Source of the DNA: Escherichia phage forsur | Reading direction: 5' to 3' (one strand) | DNA length: 42,476 bases | Sequence record: MN850617.1 | Shown here: one piece after another, positions 1,891-37,161 of the stretch | Layout: every line of letters begins with the position of its first letter | How positions within the stretch are numbered: position 1 is the stretch's first letter | The notes under the pieces: model-generated | Seen by the model: only the letters and a program-made list of their open reading frames with translations | Database searches by the model: none | What the model was told of the DNA's origin: nothing | Made by a program: the position numbers and the translations under genes

Positions 1891-2124
1891 ATGAGCAGAT
1901 ACCAACGAGCCATTGAGGATACCGTGGTCGAGAAAGGTGTGTGCGGGGAGTGCCACGGCTGTGGCACATTCACCAGCATGACCATTCGACACGAGCTTGT
2001 CCAAACTGAATGTGAAGCCTGTGGTGGCACAGGCGTGACTGACCCGGCACTGCAACGTTCAGTGCTGCGGGAACAAGGTATGCGCTGCCAAGTGCAGCCG
2101 GGCTATGACCAACCAACGGAGTAA
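1891..2124 (+). CDS. small zinc-finger protein (CxxC...CxxC)
   Basis: ATG 1891 preceded by AGGAG; product contains CGECHGCG and CEACGG Cys pairs. Confidence 0.6.
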   Translation: MSRYQRAIEDTVVEKGVCGECHGCGTFTSMTIRHELVQTECEACGGTGVTDPALQRSVLREQGMRCQVQPGYDQPTE

Positions 2125-7114: not shown

Positions 7115-8347
7115 ATGTCTGGTGAATACCAACCTACTGCCGCACCCGCTCCCCAAAACGTACCCGCTGGCCCGACCTATTCTCCCTCTGGTCACGGCGG
7201 TAATGATTATGGTGGAAGCCCACAGGTGGTACAGAACCCAGCGCTCGGACGCTTAGGCACGCCGATTGAACTGCCGCGAGGTGGTGCAACTCCGCAGCCG
7301 CAACAGCCGTTCGGTCAACAGCCGGGCCTGATTCCAAATCAGGAGTACAACCCGTATGCCCAACCGCAGCAGGGAAACCCAAGCCCTTACGCACCCGTAC
7401 CTCAGCAGAACCCGTATGGTGCTCCGCAACCGCAAAGCCCGTTTGCGGCACCACCTATTCCGATTAATGGGTATCCGCAACAGGGCTACACGCCTCCGGG
7501 CCAAGCGGCTCCGGCACAGCAGCCGGGCTTAGCACCGAACAACCCTGCGTATGGCTTCAACCCGTATGGGCAGCAGCCTCAGCAGCAGCAGCCGCAACAG
7601 CAGGCACCTCAGCAGCCGCAGCAGCCTTTCCAGCAGTTGCAGCCGCAGCCGGGCCAGCCGCCTCAGCAGTTCCAGAATCCGAACCTAACGGCAGAGAATC
7701 TGGCAAAGCAGGAAGGTGGACTGACCGCTGACCAAGTGGCTCAGATTTTCCCGGATGAAACCAGTCGTGCTGTGTTCCAAGGTATGGACACCATCGCCCG
7801 TGGCCAGAACATCGACCTGCTTGCAGCGTTCGGTTCTGCATACGAGCGTCGTGACCCTACTCTGGTGAATGAGCGCTATCTGGCGCAGTTCGACCCACAG
7901 ACTGTATCCATCCTCAAAGGTCAATTCGGCGCACTGGTTGCCGCTGGTCAGCAGCGCGATGCTGCAATCGAACAGCAGGTTTACCAGATGGCTGGTGGCC
8001 AAGAGCGTTGGGGTCTGGCAGTGCAGGCATTCAATACCGCTGCCGACAAAGGCACGATTGATGCTGTAGTAGCGGCTGTGAACTCCGGCGACCCTAATCA
8101 GGTACGTCTGGCAGTGAACACCATTCTCCAGTTTGCTGGTTCCCAAGGGAATATGATTCAGCGTTCTGGACAAAGTTTGACGCCTAATGGTGGCGGTCAA
8201 GCACCTCGTGACGTTATGACTAACGAGGCATTCCGTCAGCATCTTGGCTGGCTTGAGCAGGCGCATCCTGTTGGTTCCCCGGAATACAACAAGCATTACG
8301 CCGTACTGGTAGAGCAGCGCCGTCAGGCCAAAGCTCAAGGTTACTAA
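7115..8347 (+). CDS. scaffolding protein with long N-terminal Pro/Gln-rich low-complexity region
   Basis: Sits between portal and capsid genes; C-terminal part (AGGQERWGLAVQAF...) resembles recalled T7 gp9 (AGGRERFDALYNHL). The N-terminal ~180 aa are P/Q/N/Y-rich repeats. Confidence 0.8.
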   Translation: MSGEYQPTAAPAPQNVPAGPTYSPSGHGGNDYGGSPQVVQNPALGRLGTPIELPRGGATPQPQQPFGQQPGLIPNQEYNPYAQPQQGNPSPYAPVPQQNPYGAPQPQSPFAAPPIPINGYPQQGYTPPGQAAPAQQPGLAPNNPAYGFNPYGQQPQQQQPQQQAPQQPQQPFQQLQPQPGQPPQQFQNPNLTAENLAKQEGGLTADQVAQIFPDETSRAVFQGMDTIARGQNIDLLAAFGSAYERRDPTLVNERYLAQFDPQTVSILKGQFGALVAAGQQRDAAIEQQVYQMAGGQERWGLAVQAFNTAADKGTIDAVVAAVNSGDPNQVRLAVNTILQFAGSQGNMIQRSGQSLTPNGGGQAPRDVMTNEAFRQHLGWLEQAHPVGSPEYNKHYAVLVEQRRQAKAQGY

Positions 8348-8368: not shown

Positions 8369-9361
8369 ATGGCCGACAACTACTATCAGCCGAATCAGTT
8401 CCGTCCACACTGGGGTGGTGCGAACTCTGATAACGACATTCACCTTGAGGTGTATGACCGTGATGTGCAGACCCAGTTCATCTACAACTCCATCTTCCGC
8501 AGCGGCCTGACCAACTTCAAGTCTGTTGCGAACCAGTCCAACACTTGGCGTGGCGACCGTCTCGGCTCCGTGTCTGTGAAGGGCCGTAAGTCTGGTCAGT
8601 CTCTGGACAACCAGCCAGTTCGCTCTGAGAAGCTGATTGTCACTGTGGATACCGTGTCTTACATCCGTATCCCGATTGACTATCAGGACGACTGGACTGC
8701 GCCGGACTTCCGTGCTGAGCTGACCCGTAACATGGGTACTGCACAGGCGAAAGCGTTCGACCAAGCGCACGTCATCCAGCTCCAGAAGTCTGCTGACTTC
8801 GTTCCTCCGACCTCTCTGGCAGGCGCGTTCAACTCCGGTATCAAGGAGAAAGTAACGCTGACTGGCACCGTGGCTTCTGAGGAAGACGATGCAAGCGCAC
8901 TGGTGCATGGTCACAAGAAAGTCATTGAGGCGTTCATTCGCCGCGACGCCGACCTTGGCCGTCTGGTAACGCTGATTGACCCGGCGTGGTTCAGCATCCT
9001 GCTGGAGCACAAGAAACTGATGAACGTTGAGTTCACTGGTGGTCGTGGTGTGAACGACTTCGCTATGCGTCGTGTTGCTTACGTGAACGGTATCCGTATC
9101 ATCGAGAGCAACGCATTCCCGCAGGCAGCAATCACCAACCACATCCTCGGTGCCGACTTCAACGTCACCGCCGAAGAAATCAAGCGTAAGATGATTATCT
9201 TCGACCCGTCTCTGGCTCTGGTCACTGTCGAAGCCCAACCGCTATTCAACCGCGTGTGGGATGACGAACGTGAACTGACCAACGTTCTGGACAGCTTCCA
9301 CATGTACACCGTGGGTCAGCGTCGTCCTGACGTGGTAGGCGTGGTTACTACCGAAGCCTAA
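8369..9361 (+). CDS. major capsid protein
   Basis: 330-aa ORF in the conserved position after the scaffold gene, followed by a hairpin terminator as in T7-like phages; RBS AAGGA upstream. Confidence 0.85.
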   Translation: MADNYYQPNQFRPHWGGANSDNDIHLEVYDRDVQTQFIYNSIFRSGLTNFKSVANQSNTWRGDRLGSVSVKGRKSGQSLDNQPVRSEKLIVTVDTVSYIRIPIDYQDDWTAPDFRAELTRNMGTAQAKAFDQAHVIQLQKSADFVPPTSLAGAFNSGIKEKVTLTGTVASEEDDASALVHGHKKVIEAFIRRDADLGRLVTLIDPAWFSILLEHKKLMNVEFTGGRGVNDFAMRRVAYVNGIRIIESNAFPQAAITNHILGADFNVTAEEIKRKMIIFDPSLALVTVEAQPLFNRVWDDERELTNVLDSFHMYTVGQRRPDVVGVVTTEA

Positions 9362-9371
9362 TGGTAAACTC

Positions 9372-9394
9372 GAAGCCCTTCATTGAGGGGCTTC
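9372..9394 (+). terminator. hairpin downstream of capsid gene (terminator candidate)
   Basis: GAAGCCC-TTCATTGAG-GGGCTTC, a perfect 7-bp stem followed by TATGATTAT; position is analogous to the T7 terminator after gene 10. Confidence 0.5.
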
Positions 9395-9427
9395 TATGAT
9401 TATCGTTACTCACCCAAAGGAGGGTGC

Positions 9428-24494: not shown

Positions 24495-24983
24495 ATGAAA
24501 CTGTCTCGGCTTATGGCCGGGGCAGTCCTGTCACTGTCCTTGACTTTGACGGGCTGCTCCGCAACAAGCGCACTGTCTGCTGTAACCTCGGCTGTCTCTC
24601 CCAATAAGCCGGAACTAACGGCACAGGTTGGCGCAGAGAACACGAAACAGGGCATCGGCTTGACTGCGAAACAGTCCGACGAAACGAAGGTCGGTGACGT
24701 ATCTGGTAACGCGCAAGTGGATACCGCTAAACAGGGTAGTGATTCGACGACTGTGAAGGACGTCACAGGAGGCTCTGTAAACGCTTCTAAGCAGGGTTCG
24801 CAGATTACCAATGGAAACGTGCAGGCTAAGACTATCGTGGTCTCTCAGAGCGACCCACGCAGTCTCCTGTGGGCATTTGGCATGGGCCTTACTTGTATCT
24901 TAGGTCTGGTGATGTGGTTTGTACCATCTCCGTGGAAGAAGAAGGTGAAAGATGACGGAAGCAAAGAAGGAGCCAGCTCCTAA
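24495..24983 (+). CDS. lipoprotein with C-terminal transmembrane segment (unimolecular-spanin-like)
   Basis: N-terminus MKLSRLMAGAVLSLSLTLTGCS is a signal peptide with lipobox LTGC; C-terminus LLWAFGMGLTCILGLVMWFV is a hydrophobic helix followed by KKK; RBS AAGGGG upstream. Confidence 0.6.
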   Translation: MKLSRLMAGAVLSLSLTLTGCSATSALSAVTSAVSPNKPELTAQVGAENTKQGIGLTAKQSDETKVGDVSGNAQVDTAKQGSDSTTVKDVTGGSVNASKQGSQITNGNVQAKTIVVSQSDPRSLLWAFGMGLTCILGLVMWFVPSPWKKKVKDDGSKEGASS

Positions 24984-25335: not shown

Positions 25336-25871
25336 TGACTAACTTTGAAATCTGTATGAAGTTCACCGGGCTGGCCGAGGGTGGATACACCAAGCTGCCC
25401 GGTGACACTGGAGGGGAAACCAACCATGGAATTAGTGACGCTCGTGATGGGAAGCTGGATGGCAGAGCTTGTGGTGTCCCTACTGGGCTTGGCGGCACTG
25501 TGTGCGTGCCTATCAAAGACCTCACCAAAGAGCAAGCCGAGGCAATCTATCGCCGGGACTACTACAGCCCCATCAGAGGTGACGAGCTTCACCCTGCGAT
25601 TGCATGTGCCGTGTTTGATTACGGCGTCAACTCCGGCATCTCCCGTGCTGCTAAAGCTCTACAGCGGGTATGCGGCGTTGCACAGGACGGGGACATTGGT
25701 ACTGTCACCTTGGAAGCAGCACAACGTCTGGAACCTCACGCCGCAGCAGCAGCCATCTGTGACCTTCGTATTGCGTTCCTAAAGGCTTCTAAAGCCCCGA
25801 CAGTCGTTCGGTATAGGGATGCCTTGGTTGCTCGTGCAAAACGCTGTAGCGCTTACTGTGCGACGCTGTAG
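25335..25871 (+). CDS. endolysin, GH108-type muramidase domain with peptidoglycan-binding-like C-terminal region
   Basis: N-terminus FTGLAEGGYTKLPGDTGGETNHGIS matches the recalled GH108 signature (EGGY...D.GG.T..GI); C-terminal AAKALQRVCGVAQDGDIGTVT resembles PG-binding repeats; no signal peptide. Confidence 0.8.
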   Translation: MTNFEICMKFTGLAEGGYTKLPGDTGGETNHGISDARDGKLDGRACGVPTGLGGTVCVPIKDLTKEQAEAIYRRDYYSPIRGDELHPAIACAVFDYGVNSGISRAAKALQRVCGVAQDGDIGTVTLEAAQRLEPHAAAAAICDLRIAFLKASKAPTVVRYRDALVARAKRCSAYCATL

Positions 25872-26039
25872 GGGCATCTGAAAGCTGACACATTGAACAG
25901 GCCGTGGGTGCAATACCCCGGCTTGAAAATTGAACGTTTATGCGTGGGCCTCCCTCGACCCGAATGACCGCGCGTACCCCCATGACGTGTGCGCGGATTA
26001 GCCTCGCGACGTGCGCGATATTGCTCGCGTGCGCTGCGC

Positions 26040-26450
26040 GGCGCGTCAAGAGGATTGCCTGCGTGCGGTATAGCTCGTGCGTGTCGCGTTTCATCGTCTG
26101 CCGTGTGGCGTGCTGTGCGCTGTCCTGCTGGCTGTGCTGTGCGGTGCTGTCCTATGGGGACGCTCTGCGCTGGCTGTGCTGTGCTGCGTGCTGCGCTCGG
26201 TCGGGCGGGTATCTGTCTCTTTTGCCGTGGTACGCTCTGCGCCGTGGTGGTGCTGTGTGGTGGTGGTGCTGCCGTGGTGCTGTCCTGTCTGCTGGTCTAC
26301 TGTCTGCGCCGCCAGCTCTGCGCGTCATGCTCTGCTACCTGCTGCTACTGTCCTACTGCGTTCACTGGCTGCCGCCTGTCATCCTGTCGGATTCCATCCG
26401 TTGCCGTTCCGCGCTCGCTTGTTTCGGCTGCGCCGCGCTCGCTCTGCGTA
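26040..26450. repeat. A-depleted (C/G/T only on + strand) low-complexity block with degenerate GCTG/CTGTG/GGTG repeats; candidate terminal-repeat region
   Basis: Adenine is nearly absent on the + strand over ~400 bp, so no + frame contains a stop; non-coding position between the last late gene and the early promoters. Confidence 0.6.
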
Positions 26451-26462
26451 TCTAGCGATACA

Positions 26463-26485
26463 TATCACTATAGTCACTTTCATAA
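26463..26485 (-). promoter_or_regulatory. inverted exact copy of the T7-class promoter-like element at 4585..4607 (would fire leftward into the A-depleted block)
   Basis: + strand TATCACTATAGTCACTTTCATAA is the reverse complement of 4585..4607 (23/23). Confidence 0.4.
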
Positions 26486-26499
26486 TTATCTATTGATAT

Positions 26500-26590
26500 C
26501 AGTAACTTATAACCTATCTGATAACGGTATCTATCCTATGCAATAACCTATTCAATCAAATATTTATTCCTAATGATTACAGTAACTTAT
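26500..26590. repeat. AT-rich segment with 11-bp direct repeat CAGTAACTTAT (26500..26510 and 26580..26590)
   Basis: Read directly; copies are 80 bp apart, each preceded by TGAT; candidate origin or packaging iterons. Confidence 0.4.
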
Positions 26591-26622
26591 CCACTATTTG
26601 AGCTATTCAGTGAAAATAAATC

Positions 26623-26651
26623 TTGCAATGCTGTTTGTGATTTGCTGTAAT
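26623..26651 (+). promoter_or_regulatory. host sigma70-type early promoter P1
   Basis: -35 TTGCAA (26623..26628), 17-bp spacer, extended -10 TGcTGTAAT (hexamer 26646..26651); A-rich UP-like tract upstream. Confidence 0.6.
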
Positions 26652-26726
26652 TCTCATCGCCGGGTAGCAGAACATCGCTACACGGTGGCAAGACGGTAAC
26701 ACTGCTCTTTAACAATCTGGAGTGTA

Positions 26727-26755
26727 TTGACAAGGCAAGCTCACTATGCTGTAAT
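26727..26755 (+). promoter_or_regulatory. host sigma70-type early promoter P2
   Basis: -35 TTGACA (26727..26732), 17-bp spacer, extended -10 TGcTGTAAT (hexamer 26750..26755). Confidence 0.65.
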
Positions 26756-26863
26756 GCTTCCAGTCAGCCAGACAAGCCAAACAGTCATGGATAAAGACGT
26801 TAAAACCCGCGCAGGCTAACTGGTACGGATTATTCATCTCAGAATGGGCGCTGAATAAAACGG

Positions 26864-26892
26864 TTGACAGGATGAAACGAGTATGCTGTAAT
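26864..26892 (+). promoter_or_regulatory. host sigma70-type early promoter P3
   Basis: -35 TTGACA (26864..26869), 17-bp spacer, extended -10 TGcTGTAAT (hexamer 26887..26892); AATAAAA upstream. Confidence 0.65.
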
Positions 26893-26944
26893 ACGCTCCA
26901 GATTGACAGGGCAAGCAAGCCTGACAGTCAGTAGTAAAAAGTAG

Positions 26945-26973
26945 TTGACAAGCTGAATACACTGTGTTGTAAT
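26945..26973 (+). promoter_or_regulatory. host sigma70-type early promoter P4
   Basis: -35 TTGACA (26945..26950), 17-bp spacer, extended -10 TGtTGTAAT (hexamer 26968..26973); GTAAAAAG upstream. Confidence 0.65.
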
Positions 26974-27451
26974 CAGCACCGAGTTGGAAGGATGCAAAAC
27001 ATCCTGCTCTGAGTGAACGCAAACTGGCCGCGTAGTGTCACGGCTCACTGGGTATCCGCCGCAGGTTGGAACTGGGTGAGGCATCGCCGAAAGGCAACGG
27101 TATCGCAACAATGCTAACGCCGTAGGGGTAGCGCCTGATGCAAGGTAACGGAGAAGCGCGATAGACGCAGCGCAGTATCAGTACAATACCAAACGTCTTA
27201 TAAGGCGCGGAGTATAGCGGGTAGGTAGTCAAACGGCTTGTTAGCTGGCAACGGTGAGCAAGATACGCGACGGACTGCTGGAAGACTCCTGAGAGTGGAT
27301 GCAGACAATATCCACAGCGCGAAATGGGCGGGGCGATTTTTCAGGGTAGTGAATCCGACAAGCCAATCAATGCCACTGAGTGCAGACTGTACGGCGCGTC
27401 ACAATGGGTTCACTATCCACCTGAAAATAGCCAACAACTGGAGAAATAACT

Positions 27452-27844
27452 ATGTACCGTATCTATGCAAGCGCATATCGTCAGAACAACGCTGAGTGTG
27501 TTAATCTGGCGCTTCATTGCAAGGCACTGCGAACGGTGCAGGATATGTTCGGAGTGATTCCGGTCACACTGACAGGCAAGTTCGACAATGCGTATGAGTT
27601 AAGCATGGTCTTTCCTGTCGATGGAATCTACGAAATCAGACAGGCTGTTAAGCTGTTCTGTAAAGCCTTTGAACAGGACTGCATCATGGTAGTGACCGAT
27701 GACAATGATGCAATCTTCATGGATTCACCATATCCGGGCAAGCCTGCTGGCAAGTTTGTCAGCAAGACAGAAGCGGAGATGGAAGCCGGGCAGTTCACTG
27801 CTTGGACTTACGATGGTGAGCAATTTTGGGTAGTGGAGGCGTAA
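27452..27844 (+). CDS. hypothetical early protein (130 aa), first gene after the leader
   Basis: ATG 27452 with GGAG 8 nt upstream; ORF in track. Confidence 0.7.
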   Translation: MYRIYASAYRQNNAECVNLALHCKALRTVQDMFGVIPVTLTGKFDNAYELSMVFPVDGIYEIRQAVKLFCKAFEQDCIMVVTDDNDAIFMDSPYPGKPAGKFVSKTEAEMEAGQFTAWTYDGEQFWVVEA

Positions 27845-27845
27845 T

Positions 27846-27917
27846 ATGTTCACTGCACTCTGTGTGATAGCGGCGGCGTGCTGGCTGATTGACCAGCGCC
27901 TGTCTAAGCGAGCCTGA
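27846..27917 (+). CDS. tiny hydrophobic peptide (23 aa), speculative
   Basis: ATG follows upstream stop by 1 nt with GGAGG 8 nt upstream; MFTALCVIAAACWLIDQRLSKRA. Confidence 0.25.
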   Translation: MFTALCVIAAACWLIDQRLSKRA

Positions 27918-27918
27918 T

Positions 27919-28002
27919 ATGTGGGACTTACTGGTAGCGTTGTTCTGGTTTGTCTTTGCAGGCTTGTGGATTTACTGGTTGACTCGTCCCAAATTATGGT
28001 GA
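27919..28002 (+). CDS. tiny hydrophobic peptide (27 aa), speculative
   Basis: MWDLLVALFWFVFAGLWIYWLTRPKLW; weak RBS. Confidence 0.25.
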   Translation: MWDLLVALFWFVFAGLWIYWLTRPKLW

Positions 28003-28008
28003 CTGCCT

Positions 28009-28030
28009 AATGCGTCTTGCGAGGCGCATT
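28009..28030 (+). promoter_or_regulatory. intergenic hairpin with UUGCGA hexaloop (copy 1 of 4)
   Basis: AATGCGTC-TTGCGA-GGCGCATT; 8-bp stem including one G-U pair. Confidence 0.45.
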
Positions 28031-28066
28031 GTGAAGTAACCAACCAACAACCCGACGAGGTGTATC

Positions 28067-28594
28067 ATGACTACTGTTAAATATACTGCATTCAAAGATG
28101 CTGCGGCGCTGGACAAAGCTATCGAAGCGACTGTCAAAAAGGCGCACTCACTCCGTAACGATATTCAGAATGTTGCGGTCGGTATTATCCTGCACGCTTA
28201 CCATCACGGCGACTACACTCGTGCTGAGTCGTTCACTCACCAACTGGGTGATGGCGTCCGTGGTAAGGCACTGGTTGACTGGTTCGTCCAGTTCGGCGGC
28301 CTGATTGTGGGTGAGCATGAAGATGGCAAGTCCGGCTTCGTTGGCTGGAAGGGTGCCGACTTCATCAAAGAGAACATCGACAAGGCGAAAGCCACGATGT
28401 GGTGGACTTGCAAGCCAGAAGCGGCCTTTGATGGCTTCGACCTGCAAGATGCGCTCGAAAAGCTGATTGCCAAAGCTGAAAAGGCAATGAACAAGGCGAA
28501 CGAGCTGCGCCACGAAGGGCGCGATGAGGATGCGAACAAGGTTGTCGTGCCTCAGAACGTGCTGGACGGCCTGCGCAAGCTGAAAGCTGCGTAA
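28067..28594 (+). CDS. hypothetical early protein (175 aa)
   Basis: ORF in track; RBS GAGG upstream. Confidence 0.7.
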   Translation: MTTVKYTAFKDAAALDKAIEATVKKAHSLRNDIQNVAVGIILHAYHHGDYTRAESFTHQLGDGVRGKALVDWFVQFGGLIVGEHEDGKSGFVGWKGADFIKENIDKAKATMWWTCKPEAAFDGFDLQDALEKLIAKAEKAMNKANELRHEGRDEDANKVVVPQNVLDGLRKLKAA

Positions 28595-28607
28595 GCGGGA
28601 TTGACTC

Positions 28608-28629
28608 AAGCCATCTTGCGAGGTGGCTT
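28608..28629 (+). promoter_or_regulatory. intergenic hairpin with UUGCGA hexaloop (copy 2 of 4)
   Basis: AAGCCATC-TTGCGA-GGTGGCTT; followed by GGCAATTCTGCC at 28633..28644. Confidence 0.45.
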
Positions 28630-28667
28630 TATGGCAATTCTGCCCCAACAATTACGGAGTATCATCC

Positions 28668-28952
28668 ATGACCACTAAAACTGTTCTGGCCTACGTCACC
28701 AAGAAAGGCGAAGAAGTGTACGGCTATGCTGTGTCTATCGACGGCGGCCACAACTACCTGCATCACGTTCGTGAAGAAGGTGAACCGACTGACCACGATG
28801 GCATTCTGGAAACGCTGAAAGGCATCCCGCTGCCGCACGAAATCATCTGTATGCTGGCTGGCCAGACGGAAGATGACCTGCAACTGCGTCACGGCGACGA
28901 CCTGACCATTCAGGGTATCGGCAGCTTCGAAGCTGACGTAGACGACGAATAA
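28668..28952 (+). CDS. hypothetical early protein with acidic C-terminal tail (...GSFEADVDDE)
   Basis: ATG 28668 preceded by GGAG; ORF track starts it earlier (GTG 28623) across the hairpin, which is unlikely. Confidence 0.7.
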   Translation: MTTKTVLAYVTKKGEEVYGYAVSIDGGHNYLHHVREEGEPTDHDGILETLKGIPLPHEIICMLAGQTEDDLQLRHGDDLTIQGIGSFEADVDDE

Positions 28953-28962
28953 GCGTTGTCCT

Positions 28963-28986
28963 GCTGCATCCTTGCGAGGGTGCAGC
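28963..28986 (+). promoter_or_regulatory. intergenic hairpin with UUGCGA hexaloop (copy 3 of 4)
   Basis: GCTGCATCC-TTGCGA-GGGTGCAGC; followed by GGCAATACTGCC at 28989..29000. Confidence 0.45.
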
Positions 28987-29025
28987 GTGGCAATACTGCC
29001 TTATTCCAATCTGAGGATTAATCCT

Positions 29026-29106
29026 ATGTCTACACTGAAACTGGTACTGATTTCTAACATCGCTGCTGACGCTTTCGACGCTGATGACGTGGACTTCTCT
29101 GCGTGA
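29026..29106 (+). CDS. tiny acidic peptide (26 aa), possible remnant of the acidic-tail family
   Basis: ATG 29026 with GAGG 8 nt upstream; MSTLKLVLISNIAADAFDADDVDFSA. Confidence 0.3.
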   Translation: MSTLKLVLISNIAADAFDADDVDFSA

Positions 29107-29113
29107 TACCTTA

Positions 29114-29135
29114 CTGCCTCGTTGCGACGGGGCAG
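29114..29135 (+). promoter_or_regulatory. intergenic hairpin with UUGCGA hexaloop (copy 4 of 4)
   Basis: CTGCCTCG-TTGCGA-CGGGGCAG; followed by GGCAATCATGCC at 29139..29150. Confidence 0.45.
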
Positions 29136-29171
29136 TGCGGCAATCATGCCCAACCTAACTGGAGATTTACC

Positions 29172-29453
29172 ATGGCTACAATCAACGTGTATTCCCTGAG
29201 CAACGGCGGTCTGGCATTCATCGCTGGTGATAAGGTAGACGAAGCGCCGTCGCTGGGCGTGACGCCGAAACCGGAGGCCAGCCGTGATGATGTTATCGCG
29301 GAAGTCAAGGGTGCGCTGGAAGACCTCGGCGGTCTGCTGTTCGTCCTGAATGGTGGCAAGCTGTCGGTTGAAAAGCTGGACGCGCTGGAACCTGTCTTTG
29401 TTGAGAGCTTCGAAGCTGACAACATCGACCTCGCTGCTTTCGCTGACGCCTAA
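29172..29453 (+). CDS. small acidic early protein, tandem paralog A (MATINVY...SFEADNIDLAAFADA)
   Basis: ATG 29172 preceded by GGAG; alignable end-to-end with 29791..30099. Confidence 0.75.
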   Translation: MATINVYSLSNGGLAFIAGDKVDEAPSLGVTPKPEASRDDVIAEVKGALEDLGGLLFVLNGGKLSVEKLDALEPVFVESFEADNIDLAAFADA

Positions 29454-29491
29454 GCATAACCCGAAACCCACAACCAAAGAGGACAATCAAC

Positions 29492-29722
29492 ATGGCTAAG
29501 TTTGAACTGGTACGCTTCATTGACCCGAACGATGGCGAAGAAACCTTCGCGCAGTTTGCTGATGACCGCTCGCTGGTCGCCATCTACAACACTGAGCGCA
29601 CGGCGCGGCGCTGGTTCAAGGAAGACGACGACATGGACAGCATCGAAGAAGCGCTGGCTATGCCGGGCTACGCTGAGGCTGTCGAGGCAGCACTGAAAGG
29701 CGAAGTCGTAGCGACTGCGTGA
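29492..29722 (+). CDS. hypothetical small acidic protein (76 aa)
   Basis: ORF in track; RBS AAGAGGA upstream. Confidence 0.7.
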   Translation: MAKFELVRFIDPNDGEETFAQFADDRSLVAIYNTERTARRWFKEDDDMDSIEEALAMPGYAEAVEAALKGEVVATA

Positions 29723-29790
29723 TTTCTGTCAGCCCATCCATAGCGGTGGGCTGTAGGGCAATCATGCCACAACAACTGAGGGTATACACC

Positions 29791-30099
29791 ATGGCAACTA
29801 TCAACGTCTACAAAACTATCACTGGCTCACTGGTATTCGTAGTGGGTGAACTGCGTGAAGATGCACCAATCGTTGGCGTGTCTCTGCGTGAAGGGGCAAC
29901 CGAGGCTGACGCCATCGCTGAGATTCGTCAGAACATTGAGAACCTCGGCGGCCTGTTCTTCCTGCTGCAAGGTGGCAGCCTGAACCTCGCTAAGTTGCAG
30001 GAGCATGAGCCTGTACTCGTGACCAGCTTCGAAGCGGAAGATGTAGACGCCAGTGACTTCGAAGCCAGCCGCGCTGACGAAGAAGAAGCAGGCGAGTAA
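29791..30099 (+). CDS. small acidic early protein, tandem paralog B (MATINVY...SFEAEDVDASDFEAS...)
   Basis: ATG 29791; upstream hairpin 29730..29753 and GGCAATCATGCC at 29757..29768 mirror paralog A. Confidence 0.75.
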   Translation: MATINVYKTITGSLVFVVGELREDAPIVGVSLREGATEADAIAEIRQNIENLGGLFFLLQGGSLNLAKLQEHEPVLVTSFEAEDVDASDFEASRADEEEAGE

Positions 30100-30212
30100 T
30101 GAGCGCCATCGAGGTGGCACTGATGTTGGGCTGTCATGCAGGTATTGGCAGCCTCGTCATCTACATCGTTGGCGCGGCACGCAAATCATACGATAGGAGA
30201 ACCAAGCTATGA
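30099..30212 (+). CDS. tiny hydrophobic peptide (37 aa), speculative
   Basis: ATG overlaps upstream stop (TAATG); MSAIEVALMLGCHAGIGSLVIYIVGAARKSYDRRTKL. Confidence 0.3.
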   Translation: MSAIEVALMLGCHAGIGSLVIYIVGAARKSYDRRTKL

Positions 30213-30385
30213 AGTTTGCAGTATCGCGCAGCGGTGCAAGCCATGCGGCACACAAGTTGCACTTCCTGTTCCACTCGCTGTACCTTACAGCGGCTGCGAT
30301 GGAGGGTCACTTGTTCTATAGCCTCATGGCTGGCGGCACCTTACTGTTCATGGTTGGCACGGCGGTGCTGGGCAATGAACATTAA
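30209..30385 (+). CDS. small hydrophobic protein (58 aa), speculative
   Basis: ATG overlaps upstream stop (ATGA), AGGAG upstream; contains LMAGGTLLFMVGTAVLG. Confidence 0.3.
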   Translation: MKFAVSRSGASHAAHKLHFLFHSLYLTAAAMEGHLFYSLMAGGTLLFMVGTAVLGNEH

Positions 30386-30548
30386 TCTGTTACAACGGGT
30401 CAAGGGTATGGAGCGTCGGCACTGGGAGACGGCCATCATCCTTAAGGTAAGCATAAGCGCTGGACTGGCTGCTGCTTATTTCCTGCCAACCACCGCAGCA
30501 ATAGCCGTTGGTATCAGCACCAACCTGCTATGGTTGTGGAAGTTGTAA
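30375..30548 (+). CDS. small membrane protein (57 aa)
   Basis: In-frame ATG within track ORF 30216..30548; contains AIAVGISTNLLWLW; followed by terminator-like hairpin. Confidence 0.4.
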   Translation: MNINLLQRVKGMERRHWETAIILKVSISAGLAAAYFLPTTAAIAVGISTNLLWLWKL

Positions 30549-30562
30549 GCAGTGGATTACTC

Positions 30563-30590
30563 AAGGCTGTCCAGCGGGTAGCCTTTTTGA
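30563..30590 (+). terminator. intrinsic terminator candidate
   Basis: AAGGCTGTCC-AGC-GGGTAGCCTT stem-loop followed by TTTTGA. Confidence 0.5.
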
Positions 30591-30612
30591 AATCCATTGA
30601 CGAGAGGGGAGC

Positions 30613-30951
30613 ATGGCACTACATCGAGTGAAGGTAATGCGTGGGCCTGACTTCGAAGACGGGCAAGAGATTGCTGCATTGCAGTACCGCTTGCCGTCCG
30701 GTCAGGAGGGGCTGGTCATCATTGACCAGATTGAAATCATGGGTGAGCACATGCTGATTGCTGATGCCACCGATGAGCAAATCATTGAGCGCTGCAAGGC
30801 ATACGCCGGGGGCAGACCGTTCATCATCGACCTGATGAATGACCAGCACATCAATGCTGATGGTTCGCTGCTGTTCAAGGCATGGCTTTATGCTCTCACA
30901 ACAATCTACGAAGGGGAGATGTATCTCTTTGGCGTAGACAACGAGGGTTAA
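30613..30951 (+). CDS. hypothetical protein (112 aa)
   Basis: ORF in track; RBS GAGAGGGGAG upstream. Confidence 0.7.
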   Translation: MALHRVKVMRGPDFEDGQEIAALQYRLPSGQEGLVIIDQIEIMGEHMLIADATDEQIIERCKAYAGGRPFIIDLMNDQHINADGSLLFKAWLYALTTIYEGEMYLFGVDNEG

Positions 30952-30954
30952 ATC

Positions 30955-31269
30955 ATGAAGGTAAGCAAAGGATATCTGTTCGTGCTGTTGATGCTGGCCA
31001 CCCTGTATCTCAGCACCGTGCATGTGGCACTGGCAGCCACTGTGGAGAAGGTGCATTTGGATGCGTATGACGTACCGCTGGGCGCACCTGATGGACAGGT
31101 GTACTCTGCTTGCGTCATTGACCTACGCAAAGGCGGCACTGTCAGCACACTGGCCTACGTTGGTGAGTGTGAGGATGTGCTGCCACACCTGAAAGAAAAG
31201 CTGGAGCATGATGGCGTGACCACCATCGTGACTCTCTCAATCAACGGTCATAACATCAACCTAACGTGA
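30955..31269 (+). CDS. secreted/periplasmic small protein with N-terminal signal peptide
   Basis: MKVSKGYLFVLLMLATLYLSTVHVALA-ATVEK: charged N-region, hydrophobic core, ALA-A cleavage-like site; mature part has two Cys. Confidence 0.7.
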   Translation: MKVSKGYLFVLLMLATLYLSTVHVALAATVEKVHLDAYDVPLGAPDGQVYSACVIDLRKGGTVSTLAYVGECEDVLPHLKEKLEHDGVTTIVTLSINGHNINLT

Positions 31270-31277
31270 GGTTTTAT

Positions 31278-31529
31278 ATGAGCACTCAAGCTAAGATTGT
31301 AATTCTGCGCAACGACTATGGCCGTCCTACTCCGTTCGGCACCTTCTGTCCGTTCCTCGATACCATTGAGGGTAAAGAGTACGATGTACTCATCCTTGAG
31401 CCGGGCGAAGTGGACGCCGAAGGGGATGAAGTTGACAAGCGCTCGGTCAGTTTCCGCGATGAAGTGGGTGACTTAGCTGGCGCACACATTGACTACCATG
31501 AAGGTAAGTCATTCAAGTTCGTCGAGTAA
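31278..31529 (+). CDS. hypothetical protein (83 aa)
   Basis: ATG 31278 with GAGG 6 nt upstream. Confidence 0.65.
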   Translation: MSTQAKIVILRNDYGRPTPFGTFCPFLDTIEGKEYDVLILEPGEVDAEGDEVDKRSVSFRDEVGDLAGAHIDYHEGKSFKFVE

Positions 31530-31587
31530 TAATCTACAGCCTCTGCTTGCTGGGGCTGTGTCACTATCAAATAAACGAGAGGCAAAC

Positions 31588-31833
31588 ATGGCTAAGTATG
31601 ACGTATACAAAGACGGTGAGGGTGACTGGACTATCGTACCGGAAGGGCAGCAGATTGTAGCCCCGGTCGATGTGATTGCAATGAACGGCGCGGCGGCTGA
31701 GACACTGGCTGATGTGCAGCGCATCGCAACCACCAAGCGTGCAGGCTTCGAAGCTAACCGCACGCATGTCAAGTCGCAGGCTGTCATCAATCGCTTCGGC
31801 CCGTATGAACTGGCCGGGACTATTGAAGTGTGA
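31588..31833 (+). CDS. hypothetical protein (81 aa)
   Basis: ATG 31588 with GAGAGG upstream; preceded by hairpin 31537..31558 and motif TGTCACTATCAAA. Confidence 0.65.
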   Translation: MAKYDVYKDGEGDWTIVPEGQQIVAPVDVIAMNGAAAETLADVQRIATTKRAGFEANRTHVKSQAVINRFGPYELAGTIEV

Positions 31834-31890
31834 TAAGCTACTGCCCCTGCGTGCCGGGGGCAGTGTCATTATCAAACGATGGAGGTGGGT

Positions 31891-32175
31891 ATGGTACTGG
31901 CATCTGAATCAATCATTGAACACGCTGCTGATATCCGGGCGGCGGTTGAAAAGCGCGGGGTCGCAGCTACCCGTGGTCATCTCTCTGGCAACGGTGGCCT
32001 GCGTGGTCACAGCGTAGGCGGTGTGTTTCCCTGCGTTATCTTTGCTCGTGGCAATCCTAATGTGAAGCTCGACTGGTGCTTCCTCACACCAGCGGGTGAT
32101 GAGTTCGATGGCTTCATTAGTTATGAGGATGCGTATGCAGCCGCGCAGGAATGGCTGGAGAAAAGAGAGGTGTAA
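31891..32175 (+). CDS. hypothetical protein (94 aa)
   Basis: ATG 31891 with GGAGG upstream; preceded by hairpin 31841..31863 and motif TGTCATTATCAAA. Confidence 0.65.
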   Translation: MVLASESIIEHAADIRAAVEKRGVAATRGHLSGNGGLRGHSVGGVFPCVIFARGNPNVKLDWCFLTPAGDEFDGFISYEDAYAAAQEWLEKREV

Positions 32176-32176
32176 C

Positions 32177-32470
32177 ATGAGCAGAAGTGCTAAGTGGGAT
32201 GCGCTGGTACAGTGGGTGAAGGATAGCTTCGGGCCACCGCCTACCCCTGACCACGATGACTCGCCGTTCCAATACGTCGAGAAGAAAACGCAGGAGCTTA
32301 AGCTGGGCGACTACGTTGTAGCATACGGTGGATACATCCAGCGCATCGGTGCCGTTGAATATGATGGCAGCCGACTGGTTGTAACCAAGCTGGGGCATGG
32401 CCCTGAACGTGAATGGCAGGCGTTTGAAGACGACGAGTTCACAATCCGCACACTGAAAGAAGGAAAGTAA
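32177..32470 (+). CDS. hypothetical protein (97 aa)
   Basis: ATG 32177 with AGAGAGG upstream. Confidence 0.65.
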   Translation: MSRSAKWDALVQWVKDSFGPPPTPDHDDSPFQYVEKKTQELKLGDYVVAYGGYIQRIGAVEYDGSRLVVTKLGHGPEREWQAFEDDEFTIRTLKEGK

Positions 32471-32472
32471 TC

Positions 32473-32988
32473 ATGGCTATTGACTTTAAATTATTCAACG
32501 CCGAGCAACTTGAAACTGTCAAGTCTCTGGCTGAGTTCATCGACAACCACCCGGAGCTGAGCGAACTGGTTGAGTTCAAGGGTGGCTACCTGCCGAAGCA
32601 AAGTTACATCGGCGCGGTGCGTAAAGGTCGTGAAGGTATGCTGGATATTATTCCGCAGACCAGAACCGGGGCGCTGCTGGCACGCAACGTCAGCGTGCTG
32701 ATTGGCATGAACGTGAAGCGTGCCAGTGAGCAGGGCAATGCGGCTGAGGTTGAGACGCTGCGCCTGACAGGTACGCTCGCAGCTAAGGCCATGTCGGAAC
32801 CGGACATTGCCGAGCGCTATCATGACTGGTACATGGCGTGCGCTAATGTGCCAAGCGATATCAGTGAGACGACGCTGGGCCTGCTGTTCGTAGGTGAGTT
32901 CATCGACGCAACCATCCGTGCAGTCAGCGGTCAGGTGGGTGAATTAATTCAGGCAATGCAGCAGGCCAAGAATGCAACACGTCACTAA
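32473..32988 (+). CDS. hypothetical protein (171 aa)
   Basis: ORF in track; RBS GAAGGAAAG upstream. Confidence 0.7.
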   Translation: MAIDFKLFNAEQLETVKSLAEFIDNHPELSELVEFKGGYLPKQSYIGAVRKGREGMLDIIPQTRTGALLARNVSVLIGMNVKRASEQGNAAEVETLRLTGTLAAKAMSEPDIAERYHDWYMACANVPSDISETTLGLLFVGEFIDATIRAVSGQVGELIQAMQQAKNATRH

Positions 32989-33213
32989 GCTCACCGTAAC
33001 CAAATCACCCACCGGATTATTCTGGTGGGTAGTTGATAAGCTGCAACCAAATAAACCTTTGGCTGTGCGTGATACAAAGTGGGAAGCCGAGAGTAAACTC
33101 GAAGACCTTCAACGTATTATGCGGAATGTTATTCCAGCTTAGCCATCTACTCATGCCAGTTATTATTTAGCTGGCATTATGAAGGTGACTATATTGGACA
33201 ACCCGGAGGAAAT

Positions 33214-36488: not shown

Positions 36489-37161
36489 TGCCGAAGCTAA
36501 GCGCGTGTGGGCAGAAGACATCTGCCGTCTGCTGCAATCCGAAGAACTGAACTTCGTGGTTGCCGGGGGAGGGGCAAGGGATACCGCGTTGGGTGTTGAG
36601 CCGAAGGACTACGACATTGTGGTCTTTGGTTGGGGTGGTGATGTGAGCCGTGTGGCTGGCCGACTGGACTGGCTGGACTCCAGACTGGAGGACTATGCCA
36701 AGCAGCACGAGCTGTCGTATGAATACATGCCGAGCTATCACGATGCAGCAGAGGGTGGCGACTTCGGCTCCCGGCTGTGGGGTGTGTATAAGATTGGCCC
36801 GGTCGATGTGATTATCAGTAAGTGTGGGTGCTGGTCACAGGTACTGAACGAGTTCGACTTCAACCTGAACCAGTTCTACTTCCCGTCCAGTATCCCGCGT
36901 TACTCCGGCCAGTACAGCCGTGACCCCGGCGAGTTCATGGCGTATCCGTATGAGCCGAACCTCACTGCCGAAGATGTGCAGTGGTTCCCGGCGCTGGCCA
37001 GCCTGGTAGAAAGCTATGATGACCTGCTGACTCTCCGTGTCTGCCGACCGGATGCCAGCCTGAGTCGTGTGGCTTACATGCTGGAGAAGCACGAGAAGTA
37101 TCTGCCAGCCATTGAAGCATACGTTAATCGTATGCCCGACCACTTAGGTGGCAAAGCATAG
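36478..37161 (+). CDS. Pol-beta-superfamily nucleotidyltransferase (CCA-adding / poly(A) polymerase head-domain-like)
   Basis: ATG 36478 with AAGGGGAAA upstream; VVAGGGARDTALGVEPKDYDIVVFG matches the recalled GG.VRD...DxD head-domain signature. Confidence 0.6.
   Translation: MISNAEAKRVWAEDICRLLQSEELNFVVAGGGARDTALGVEPKDYDIVVFGWGGDVSRVAGRLDWLDSRLEDYAKQHELSYEYMPSYHDAAEGGDFGSRLWGVYKIGPVDVIISKCGCWSQVLNEFDFNLNQFYFPSSIPRYSGQYSRDPGEFMAYPYEPNLTAEDVQWFPALASLVESYDDLLTLRVCRPDASLSRVAYMLEKHEKYLPAIEAYVNRMPDHLGGKA

Follow-up and report, generated by a model that had tools for sequence, protein, structure and literature searches.

The locus considered here raises the question of why four short hairpins with the same loop sequence sit between successive early genes of Escherichia phage forsur. 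The window, meaning the whole stretch of DNA analysed, comprises 42,476 nucleotides (sequence record MN850617.1), and a first-pass annotation had reported within it four hairpins in which different stems of 8-9 bp enclose TTGCGA. All four were found on the + strand, at the positions first reported:

28009-28030, + strand: hairpin 1, AATGCGTC-TTGCGA-GGCGCATT
28608-28629, + strand: hairpin 2, AAGCCATC-TTGCGA-GGTGGCTT
28963-28986, + strand: hairpin 3, GCTGCATCC-TTGCGA-GGGTGCAGC
29114-29135, + strand: hairpin 4, CTGCCTCG-TTGCGA-CGGGGCAG

A single T.G pair is present in each stem, at a distance of two or three pairs from the loop, in agreement with the G-U pair described near the loop. The stems, first given as 8-9 bp, extend to 9-11 bp once flanking wobbles and the T-A of TTGCGA are counted. 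The hexamer alone is not enriched in the window (12 copies vs. about 25 expected). Counting only copies with a closing stem of 8 bp or more, it was observed four times, compared to none in 200 dinucleotide shuffles. The hairpins are therefore real, and their number is far above what chance would give.

The window is 99% identical to phage glasur and belongs to Bonnellvirus (Autographiviridae). Genes are all located on one strand with the RNA polymerase gene mid-genome, and the phage is a T7 relative with its own single-subunit RNA polymerase. Three tandem sigma-70-like promoters, read from the sequence as TTGACA-N17-TGTAAT, lie upstream of the early genes (26727..26979):

26727-26755, + strand: first sigma-70-like promoter
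26864-26892, + strand: second sigma-70-like promoter
26946-26974, + strand: third sigma-70-like promoter

These promoters are the presumed source of a polycistronic early transcript. They were missed by the promoter scan because it requires an A at the second position of the -10 hexamer. The LIMEzero record has three host promoters annotated in the equivalent place. All four hairpins are located downstream of the tandem promoters and between + strand ORFs. Hairpins 2, 3 and 4 begin 13, 10 and 7 nt past stop codons and end 38, 39 and 36 nt ahead of the ATG at 28668, 29026 and 29172, respectively, as the spacing first described would have it. Hairpin 1 keeps the distance to the start codon (36 nt to the ATG at 28067). 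The annotated gene upstream of it ends 164 nt earlier, and a stop codon precedes the hairpin only on the assumption that an unannotated ORF of 37 codons (27889-28002) is real. Across 12 Bonnellvirus early regions, nearly every gap contains one hairpin, 5-15 nt past the stop and 30-40 nt before the ATG.

As modelled by folding, the four hairpins are only the upper stems of longer, two-tier stem-loops. Across a small internal loop, the flanking sequences pair as a lower stem that takes in the stop codon upstream and a GGCAAUNNUGCC motif downstream, bringing the total helix to about 20-22 bp or about two turns of dsRNA. The lower stem measures 6-11 bp and usually has the upstream stop codon in its 5' strand. 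A small asymmetric internal loop separates it from the upper stem of 9-12 bp, which ends in a small stable loop (UGCG with a closing U-A pair in hairpins 1-4). Nearly all early intergenic gaps fold into such a structure, with the lower stem present in MFE and centroid folds. For hairpins 2 and 4, and for hairpin 3 in orthologues, MFE or centroid folding yields the two-tier structure, which is weak for hairpin 1. The spacing from TTGCGA to GGCAAT is fixed at 11 nt. The lower stem and the downstream GGCAATNNTGCC motif, both overlooked initially, are what identifies the element.

Covariation argues that the two-tier structure is under selection. The GGCAATNNTGCC motif is the 3' strand of the lower stem, and its NN covaries with the 5' strand (GUGAU/AUCAU, GGGAUUG/CAAUUCU, CGUUGU/AUAAUG). 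More distant loci carry compensatory changes, for example GCGGGAUUG/CAAUUCUGC to GCGUGAUUG/CAAUUAUGC. Flank complementarity averages -9.6 kcal/mol vs. -5.9 kcal/mol for shuffled flanks, and the flank duplex has z < -1.64 in 48% of 62 elements. Alignment with MAFFT and RNAalifold gave a poor consensus on the mixed subtypes because these differ in register, and was replaced by explicit structures and covariance models. In an alignment of 62 distinct elements that was fitted to the model and hence favours structure, 79.4% of cells are paired, compared to 36-45% in slid controls, and double changes occur in 18 of 20 pairs. The covariation score, from an alignment likewise fitted to the model, is 0.433 vs. 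0.07-0.13 and was reached by none of 500 shuffles. A covariance-model search, as proposed by the first-pass annotation, returned 85 family-model matches, all on the + strand, and several positions are mostly U.G wobbles. The original claim of a selected RNA structure is borne out on the + strand. The following elements were recognized in the window:

27997..28042, + strand: site 1, two-tier element around hairpin 1; lower strands 27997-28006 (5', containing TGA 28000-28002) and 28033-28042 (3'); upper hairpin 28008-28031, 10 bp, loop UGCG 28018-28021
28595..28643, + strand: site 2, two-tier element around hairpin 2; lower strands 28595-28606 (5') and 28633-28643 (3', GGCAAUUCUGC); upper hairpin 28608-28629, 9 bp, loop UGCG 28617-28620; unpaired UAU 28630-28632
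28947..29005, + strand: site 3, two-tier element around hairpin 3; lower strands about 28947-28961 (5', AAUAAGCGUUGUCC, beginning in the TAA stop) and 28989-29005 (3', GGCAAUACUGCCUUAUU); upper hairpin 28962-28987, 11 bp, loop UGCG 28973-28976
29101..29149, + strand: site 4, two-tier element around hairpin 4; lower strands 29101-29107 (GCGUGAU, containing stop TGA 29104-29106) plus 29109-29110 (5') and 29139-29140 plus 29143-29149 (AUCAUGC, 3'); upper hairpin 29112-29137, 11 bp, loop UGCG 29123-29126
29716..29767, + strand: site 5, architecture as sites 1-4 with another loop; lower stem GCGUGAUUUCU / AGG.CAAUCAUGC; upper hairpin 29730-29753, 9 bp, loop CAUAGC
30544..30602, + strand: site 6, GGAUUACUC-AAGGCUGUCC-AGC-GGGUAGCCUU-UUUGAAAUCC
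31519..31576, + strand: site 7, upper hairpin 31535-31560
31822..31881, + strand: site 8, upper hairpin 31839-31865; lower stem UGAUAAG / CAUUAUCA, containing the double stop UGAUAA
33134..33194, + strand: site 9, T7-like, CUACUC-AUGCCAGUUA-UUAUU-UAGCUGGCAU-UAUGAAGGUG
9353..9411, + strand: site 10, in the late region directly after the major head gene (8369-9361), AAACUC-GAAGCCCUUC-AUU-GAGGGGCUUC-UAUGAUUAUC

Sites were scored with a Bonnellvirus model (R1) and a T7-only model (R2), the latter built from seven T7 sites with R6.5, R13 and R3.8 left out. No site-like fold was obtained at the T7 coordinates used for R6.5 and R13, and R3.8 could not be aligned. Site 1 reaches 31.9 bits with the Bonnellvirus model and a non-significant 8.4 bits with the T7-only model. 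Its lower stem is weak (duplex -6.8 kcal/mol, z -0.6), and the aldrigsur orthologue shows compensatory changes in both stems. At site 2, MFE and centroid folds agree (z -3.3) and the T7-only model gives 32.8 bits (E 3e-5, whole window). Site 3 reaches 46 bits with the Bonnellvirus model and 5.8 bits, not significant, with the T7-only model, with a flank duplex of -10.8 kcal/mol (z -2.9). Its lower stem loses to a competing fold in the window, whereas the full two-tier fold is the MFE in the LF82-23, HHU8 and aldrigsur orthologues. Site 4 has identical MFE and centroid folds (z -3.9) and 64.3 bits with the Bonnellvirus model; the T7-only model gave no match there. Among the remaining early sites, the Bonnellvirus model gives 37.5 bits at site 5 (T7-only 17.8 bits, E 0.15), 42.3 bits at site 7 and 40.7 bits at site 8 (T7-only 13.8 bits, E 1.5). 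No convincing lower stem was found at site 7 in the window phage (flank duplex z 0.0). Site 6 is the most T7-like element of the window (T7-only 46.2 bits, E 1.4e-8). Sites 9 and 10 score 29.6 bits (E 1.8e-4, filters off) and 37.7 bits (E 1.8e-6) with the T7-only model, respectively, and site 10 reaches 20 bits with the Bonnellvirus model.

Transcription terminators or attenuators grading expression of the early operon were among the functions initially offered. GC-rich hairpins directly after genes would suit such a role, as would the UUUUU after site 6. Two LIMEzero hairpins are annotated as putative factor-independent terminators, one directly after the major capsid gene in the place of site 10, the other at the end of the early region (7255-7284; a weak match to the T7-only model, E 0.055). 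A terminator or attenuator does not fit the four hairpins though, because no U-tract follows them (GUGAAG, UAUGGC, GUGGCA and UGCGGC after hairpins 1-4, respectively) and the terminator scan reported none at the four positions. Termination would also not need a lower stem covering the upstream stop codon. We consider this function very unlikely.

The loop was originally described as an invariant hexaloop. This description fails because the closing pair covaries and the loop changes in related phages. The UUGCGA hexaloop is better read as a UGCG tetraloop with a closing U-A pair. The closing pair is UA in 24, GC in 13, CG in 8 and UG in 8 family elements, and loops at orthologous sites are UGCG, UACG, CACG, CAAG, CUCG or a triloop. 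Hairpin loops recognized by proteins include boxB, bound by lambda N, and the operator bound by coat protein. A conserved loop on variable stems, as in elements of this type, was not found at orthologous sites. Recognition of UUGCGA by a phage or host protein might account for four copies of one loop on different stems within 1.1 kb and for the loop being kept at several sites in relatives. Such a protein would have to cope, however, with the loop replacements in orthologues, with a loop U and A that form a covarying pair, and with the same flanks carrying the loop CAUAGC at site 5. RNase III substrates, on the other hand, tolerate any tetraloop, and tetraloop sequence is not required (PMC1540722). 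A loop-specific binding hairpin hence has a very slim chance of being correct. The shared TTGCGA most likely reflects common descent and selection for a stable cap rather than loop-specific recognition, and the loop-proximal U-A and U.G pairs may serve as an RNase III distal box.

RNase III cutting of the T7 early transcript has been known since the 1970s. Much like the window elements, the T7 early sites (R0.3, R0.5, R1, R1.1, R1.3) are intercistronic and located downstream of tandem host promoters. In both, a small loop caps an upper stem of 9-12 bp, and an asymmetric internal loop separates this from a lower stem, with a total of about 20-22 bp. A U.G wobble near the loop and a predicted cut 27-38 nt ahead of the next start codon are further common features. 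Five T7 early intergenic elements fold likewise and share sequence with site 2, where ...GACUCAAGCC..GGCUUUAUGG.. parallels T7 ...ACUCAAGGUC..GGCCUUUAUGAU.., and the T7 flanking sequence ACUCAAG...CUUUAUG is common to site 2 and three other window sites. The T7 site R1 has the loop UGCG, identical to hairpins 1-4, and its hairpin differs from the J8-65 hairpin (CAGGCCAUCUGCGGGUGGCCUGAA) at 1 of 24 bases. RNase III sites are not listed in the T7 GenBank records examined, and the T7 site coordinates and terminal sequences used here are presumed to be correct. Run against the complete T7 genome of 39,937 bp, a Bonnellvirus-only model found five matches, each on the + strand, four with E <=0.011 and the fifth (13849-13907) with E 0.46. 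We take these to be known sites, based on coordinates reportedly given by Dunn and Studier in 1983:

1423-1483, + strand: presumably R0.5
5843-5902, + strand: presumably R1.1
3096-3153, + strand: presumably R1
36812-36871, + strand: presumably R18.5
13849-13907, + strand: presumably R4.7

Conversely, the T7-only model had + strand matches in the window at 30544, 9353, 28589 (hairpin 2) and 33134, each of them in an intergenic gap. A model from the hairpin 3/4 subtype alone found no T7 site. What is proposed to link hairpins 1, 3 and 4 to T7 is their architecture, their position and their continuity with hairpin 2. Based on this analogy, the two-tier elements are probably T7-type RNase III processing signals that are unannotated in the Bonnellvirus lineage. 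Among the functions listed in the first-pass annotation, a processing site is thus the one favored by the evidence, specifically processing by RNase III, with the cleavage itself being a prediction. The window phage differs from T7 in several respects. T7 has five sites in 7 kb, while the window has about nine in 5.5 kb, one after almost every small early gene. The lineage is another one, with the RNA polymerase gene mid-genome, and most window lower stems use the lineage-specific 3' strand GGCAAUNNUGCC. Hairpins 1, 3 and 4 are not detectably T7-like in sequence, and cleavage in the window phage is predicted only.

Host RNA polymerase would start at the three tandem strong promoters and, by analogy with T7, produce one long rightward early RNA. 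The helix would then be bound by host RNase III, with a single cut 12-13 nt past the tetraloop, on the internal loop's 3' side. The predicted cut falls after 28033 or 28034 at site 1, between 28632 and 28633 at site 2 (separating UAU from GGC), after 28988 or 28989 at site 3, and after 29138 or 29139 at site 4. At sites 2-4, this would be at or directly before the G of GGCAAU. The upstream message would then end in the stable upper hairpin and be protected by it from 3' exonucleases, with the downstream message beginning about 35 nt before its start codon. The likely outcome would be one message per gene. Internal loops are known to lead to single-strand cleavage and a stabilizing 3' hairpin (PMC3867540).

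How well the hairpins comply with the substrate rules of RNase III varies. The target lies within the 11-bp helix adjoining the loop, and binding is weak for helices below about 22 bp (PMC1540722). G-C or C-G at the base of the upper stem weakens binding or cleavage of the R1.1 minimal substrate, and A-U is preferred (PMC1540722). Hairpin 2 has a T7-like stem base (C.U / A-U / A-U / G-C). Hairpins 3 and 4 have G-C or C-G at this position and could thus be poor or cleavage-resistant sites. U-A and U.G pairs occur close to the loop in all four hairpins, but do not directly follow each other as they do in R1.1. The R1.1 rules are not strictly obeyed by natural T7 sites either. Alternatively, hairpins 3 and 4 with their orthologues (the GGCAAUNNUGCC subtype) might represent a lineage-specific variant that RNase III binds without cutting or that is the target of another factor. 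This subtype and the repeat family as a whole might then form portable cassettes at gene boundaries that drive the turnover of small early genes. We regard this scenario as unlikely.

The hairpins could also act passively as 3'-exonuclease barriers after cleavage elsewhere (e.g., by RNase E) or as intercistronic insulators, without being cut by RNase III. The strong, GC-rich upper stems and the many loops resembling stable tetraloops (UGCG, UACG, CUUG) are consistent with such a role. So are the lack of T7-like sequence in hairpins 1, 3 and 4, the little or absent lower stem at site 7 and hairpin 1, and the GC-rich stem bases of hairpins 3 and 4, which disfavor RNase III in the model substrate. 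Passive stability leaves unexplained, however, the conserved covarying lower stem with its fixed internal-loop geometry, the fixed 11-nt spacing and the reciprocal model matches with T7 RNase III sites. This alternative is unlikely overall. Stable C(UUCG)G tetraloop hairpins were reportedly found in T4 intercistronic regions by Tuerk et al. in 1988. They are similarly strong hairpins with UNCG-like loops between phage genes; UGCG and UACG are among the family loops, and in relatives some loops have a closing C-G pair. As simple stem-loops, the T4 hairpins lack a conserved lower stem or internal loop though, and are closed by an extra-stable C-G instead of the U-A of the window loops. REP and other intercistronic stabilizer hairpins of E. 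coli operons have their own consensus and occur in either orientation. They are likewise intergenic, GC-rich and able to protect upstream mRNA from 3' exonucleases, whereas window-type elements keep to the + strand and look like RNase III sites of T7.

The repeats might mainly serve as recombination linkers, i.e., gene-boundary cassettes promoting the shuffling and loss of small early genes. T4-type phages reportedly carry comparable promoter-early stem-loop (PeSL) cassettes, according to Arbiol et al. in 2010, in which a repeated stem-loop bounds small variable early genes. Recombination-junction evidence was also found here. Compared to aldrigsur, mellemsur lacks about 1.7 kb; the junction of this deletion falls within 5' halves that are homologous between two sites, and a hybrid hairpin remains. 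Gene content between sites varies among relatives. However, any repeated sequence would give homology-driven deletions, and linkers leave unexplained the strand-specific wobble pairs, the compensatory changes and the similarity to T7 sites. PeSLs require an early sigma-70 promoter after the stem-loop, while the window gaps measure only 30-40 nt from hairpin to ATG. A scan requiring A at -10 position 2 detected no + strand promoter-like site in the hairpin gaps. A primary role in recombination is very unlikely.

Several other readings of the motif were considered and rejected. A sigma-70 promoter with TTGCGA as -35 would have 14 nt to any -10-like hexamer, and the scan found nothing. A sigma-54 site in TGGCAAT..TGCC would have a GG-to-GC spacing of 7 nt, not 10. 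For an H-type pseudoknot between the loop UUGC and a downstream GCAA, the 2-3 nt linker cannot span a stem of 8-11 bp, and GGCAAU pairs upstream. An independent GGCA/UGCC mini-hairpin forms only as an alternative where the lower stem has become weak, for example at site 3. A promoter for phage RNA polymerase came into consideration because GUGUCACUAUC resembles the core of the SP6 promoter, but this sequence is a lower-stem strand pairing with UGAUAA. A substrate of the RNase P type would not fit, with no RCCA after the stem. An Rfam search (cmscan of 25500-33000, E up to 5) returned a single weak unrelated match and no family.

None of the Bonnellvirus and LIMEzero records examined marks two-tier elements, and searching the literature on phiKMV-like phages, LIMEzero and Bonnellvirus for RNase III sites retrieved nothing relevant. 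Recognizing the elements fills an annotation gap for a whole phage lineage. Two related LIMEzero hairpins are labelled as terminators. The elements leave the known mechanism unchanged. They suggest that the T7 strategy of early-mRNA cutting by host RNase III extends to other gene orders and is used more densely here, with roughly one cut per gene. The family provides dozens of natural RNase III substrate variants usable for testing recognition rules. Phage engineering should keep the elements intact when early genes are deleted or inserted. Hairpins 2-4 precede small acidic genes, of which at least two (29172-29453 and 29791-30099) look paralogous by eye.

The four hairpins that the first-pass annotation had reported, with the loop TTGCGA, stems that all differ and one T.G near the loop, are present in the window among the small genes that come first in the early region. 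The hexamer itself is not enriched (12 copies in the window compared with about 25 expected). Closed by a stem of at least 8 bp, it occurs four times in the window compared with none in 200 dinucleotide-preserving shuffles. The proposed placement between a stop and a start codon holds for hairpins 2-4, which begin 13, 10 and 7 nt after the stop codon, respectively; the next ATG lies 36-39 nt past their 3' ends. For hairpin 1, the upstream stop codon depends on an unannotated 37-codon ORF being real. The hairpin region shares 99% identity with Escherichia phage glasur (Autographiviridae, Bonnellvirus), and all genes in the window lie on the + strand.

28009-28030, upper stem-loop of site 1 (hairpin 1)
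28608-28629, upper stem-loop of site 2 (hairpin 2)
28963-28986, upper stem-loop of site 3 (hairpin 3)
29114-29135, upper stem-loop of site 4 (hairpin 4)
2124-4559, + strand, single-subunit RNA polymerase gene, mid-genome
26727-26979, three tandem TTGACA-N17-TGTAAT promoter-like sites (26727, 26864 and 26946), upstream of the first early gene

The tandem promoter-like sites resemble the A1-A3 promoters of T7 and escaped the promoter scan, since position 2 of their -10 hexamer is a G. Between hairpins 3 and 4, the gene at 29026-29106 has 26 codons compared with 113 in glasur (L001 2561-2899). This looks like an in-frame internal deletion of 258 bp, which would explain why the two hairpins are just 150 nt apart.

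The loop had been described as invariant, which did not survive comparison with 12 relatives. A census of their + strand intergenic hairpins found one GC-rich hairpin of 9-12 bp in nearly each early gap, with loops including UGCG, UACG, CACG/CAAG/CUCG, CUUG, triloops and CAUAGC. The site before the second gene reads as follows:

window: TAATGCGTCT-tgcg-AGGCGCATTG
aldrigsur: TATAGCGTCT-tgcg-AGGCGCTATG
Kc261, RZ4, J8-65 and Lidtsur: TATAGCGTCC-tacg-GGGCGCTATG

The T and A of TTGCGA alternate with C-G across relatives and therefore form a base pair, making the true loop a tetraloop. Among 62 distinct elements, the closing pair is UA in 24, GC in 13, CG in 8 and UG in 8. A protein that binds the hairpins by reading their loop is contradicted by both the loop turnover and the closing-pair changes.

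When the gaps were folded together with their flanks, the flanks paired, and the hairpin is only the upper stem of a two-tier element with a lower stem and a small internal loop:

site 4: GCGUGAU.CC[upper]GG..AUCAUGC
site 2: GCGGGAUUG.CU.[upper]...GGCAAUUCUGC

The motif GGCAATNNTGCC is found 3' of hairpins 2-4 at a constant 11 nt from TTGCGA, as well as 3' of a fifth hairpin whose loop differs. The lower stem has the motif as its 3' strand, and the NN of the motif varies in step with the 5' strand, which in most cases contains the upstream stop codon. Compensatory changes (e.g., GCGCUAU/AUAGUGC) occur in more distant loci. Flank complementarity was -9.6 kcal/mol compared with -5.9 in shuffled controls, with z < -1.64 in 48% of elements. 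Flank pairing is weak at hairpin 1, and complementarity is absent, compared with shuffled controls, at site 7 (31519-31576), a further element of this type. Hairpins 1-4 are not followed by U-tracts, which argues against the transcription terminators that the first-pass annotation had also considered. The genes at 28668-28952, 29026-29106, 29172-29453 and 29791-30099 follow GGCAATNNTGCC-type sites and encode small acidic proteins with SFEAD/SFEAE-like tails, two of which begin with MATINVY. By eye, these genes look like a tandem paralogue array.

A covariance model trained on 25 Bonnellvirus elements recovered 85 elements in 16 loci, all on the + strand. The alignment of matches was fitted to the model, which creates a bias toward structure only partly carried by the slid controls; in this alignment, 79.4% of cells were paired compared with 36-45% with partners slid, 18 of 20 pairs had changes on both sides, and the covariation score was 0.433 compared with 0.07-0.13; the observed values were attained by no shuffle. 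The predominance of U.G at several paired positions fits a + strand RNA, not a DNA palindrome.

Elements of this kind entered textbook knowledge in the 1970s. In T7, the five intergenic regions of the early genes that hold RNase III sites have the same two-tier fold and a sequence like that of window site 2:

T7 R1.1: GGGACAAACUC-AAGGUCAUUC-GCAA-GAGUGGCCUU-UAUGAUUGACC
window site 2: GGGAUUGACUC-AAGCCAUCU-UGCG-AGGUGGCUU-UAUGGCAAUUC

The loop of T7 R1 is UGCG, as in hairpins 1-4. The J8-65 hairpin CAGGCCATCTGCGGGTGGCCTGAA (L008 3266-3289) differs from the R1 upper stem-loop (L021 3114-3137) at 1 of 24 bases, despite the two phages belonging to different subfamilies. The likeness could come from common ancestry, from exchange or from a strong convergence of both on RNase III. 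A Bonnellvirus-only model matched the whole T7 genome five times, always on the + strand (four matches with E <=0.011, the fifth with E 0.46). The matches coincide with what we take to be R0.5, R1.1, R1, R18.5 and R4.7, with cleavage presumably 42-45 nt inside each match, directly past the upper stem. A T7-only model of seven T7 sites gave four matches in the window, each in an intergenic gap:

30544-30602, + strand, E 1.4e-8
9353-9411, + strand, E 1.8e-6
28589-28646, + strand, E 3e-5 (hairpin 2)
33134-33194, + strand, E 1.8e-4

The model also matches early gaps of relatives and of LIMEzero, which belongs to another genus. Passive stabiliser hairpins would leave both these cross-matches and the lower stem unexplained. 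Even with the search narrowed to 1.25 kb, the T7-only model recognised neither hairpin 1 (8.4 bits), hairpin 3 (5.8 bits) nor hairpin 4 (no match), and a hairpin 3/4-subtype model found no T7 site. The T7 link of these three hairpins rests on architecture, position and the lower-stem strand common with hairpin 2. Hairpins 3 and 4 carry G-C or C-G at the upper-stem base, pairs that lower binding or cleavage of the R1.1 minimal substrate (PMC1540722). Natural T7 sites too depart from the minimal-substrate rules.

In published work, internal loops confine RNase III cuts to one strand, leaving a stabilising 3' hairpin (PMC3867540). Tetraloop sequence is immaterial to the enzyme, the target being inside the 11-bp helix adjoining the loop (PMC1540722). 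Cuts at sites 1-4 are predicted after 28033/4, 28632, 28988/9 and 29138/9, which would be 34-38 nt before the next start codon. The prediction is by analogy with T7, where cuts presumably fall 12-13 nt past the loop and 27-35 nt before the next start codon. A literature search found no paper tying these phages to RNase III, and the elements are unannotated in the GenBank records of relatives examined, including LIMEzero.

The sites might alternatively serve mainly as recombination linkers. Compared with aldrigsur (L006 5103-5131, 6830-6860), mellemsur (L011 7110-7139) is missing about 1.7 kb of early genes, and the junction lies within the homologous 5' halves of two sites, leaving a hybrid hairpin with one mismatch. 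Repeated sites thus act as recombination junctions, a role that is real but looks secondary to the proposed RNase III processing.

The two-tier, T7-like stem-loop at 9353-9411 (…AAACUC-GAAGCCCUUC-AUU-GAGGGGCUUC-UAUGAUUAUC) lies directly 3' of the major head protein gene. The LIMEzero record labels the hairpin at the equivalent place a putative factor-independent terminator, and the element may serve in processing, termination or both. Ten early gaps of LIMEzero (L024 2282-7295), a Pantoea phage in the genus Waewaevirus, hold elements of this type, none of which its record marks as a processing site. One of the ten, a weak match at 7233-7295 (E 0.055), overlaps an annotated terminator (7255-7284). 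The window segment 25940-26460 is very GC-rich, with many GCGCG/GTGCTG runs and spurious Cys/Arg-rich ORFs, and adjoins the AT-rich promoter region on its upstream side. The segment is probably a genome end or terminal-repeat region; J8-65 is annotated with a 259-bp terminal repeat. A strong 11-bp hairpin at 24500-24526 (ACTGTCTCGGC-ttatg-GCCGGGGCAGT), at the very beginning of the ORF 24495-24983, has a stem like those of site 4 and site 8 (31822-31881). A leader hairpin at 27295-27315 (GTGGATG-cagacaa-TATCCAC), about 136 nt upstream of the first early gene, is kept in relatives and is not two-tier. Directly 5' of the RNA polymerase gene, LF82-23 (L002 22840-23154) and LIMEzero (L024 17660-17896) carry a small gene annotated as anti-termination protein Q-like.
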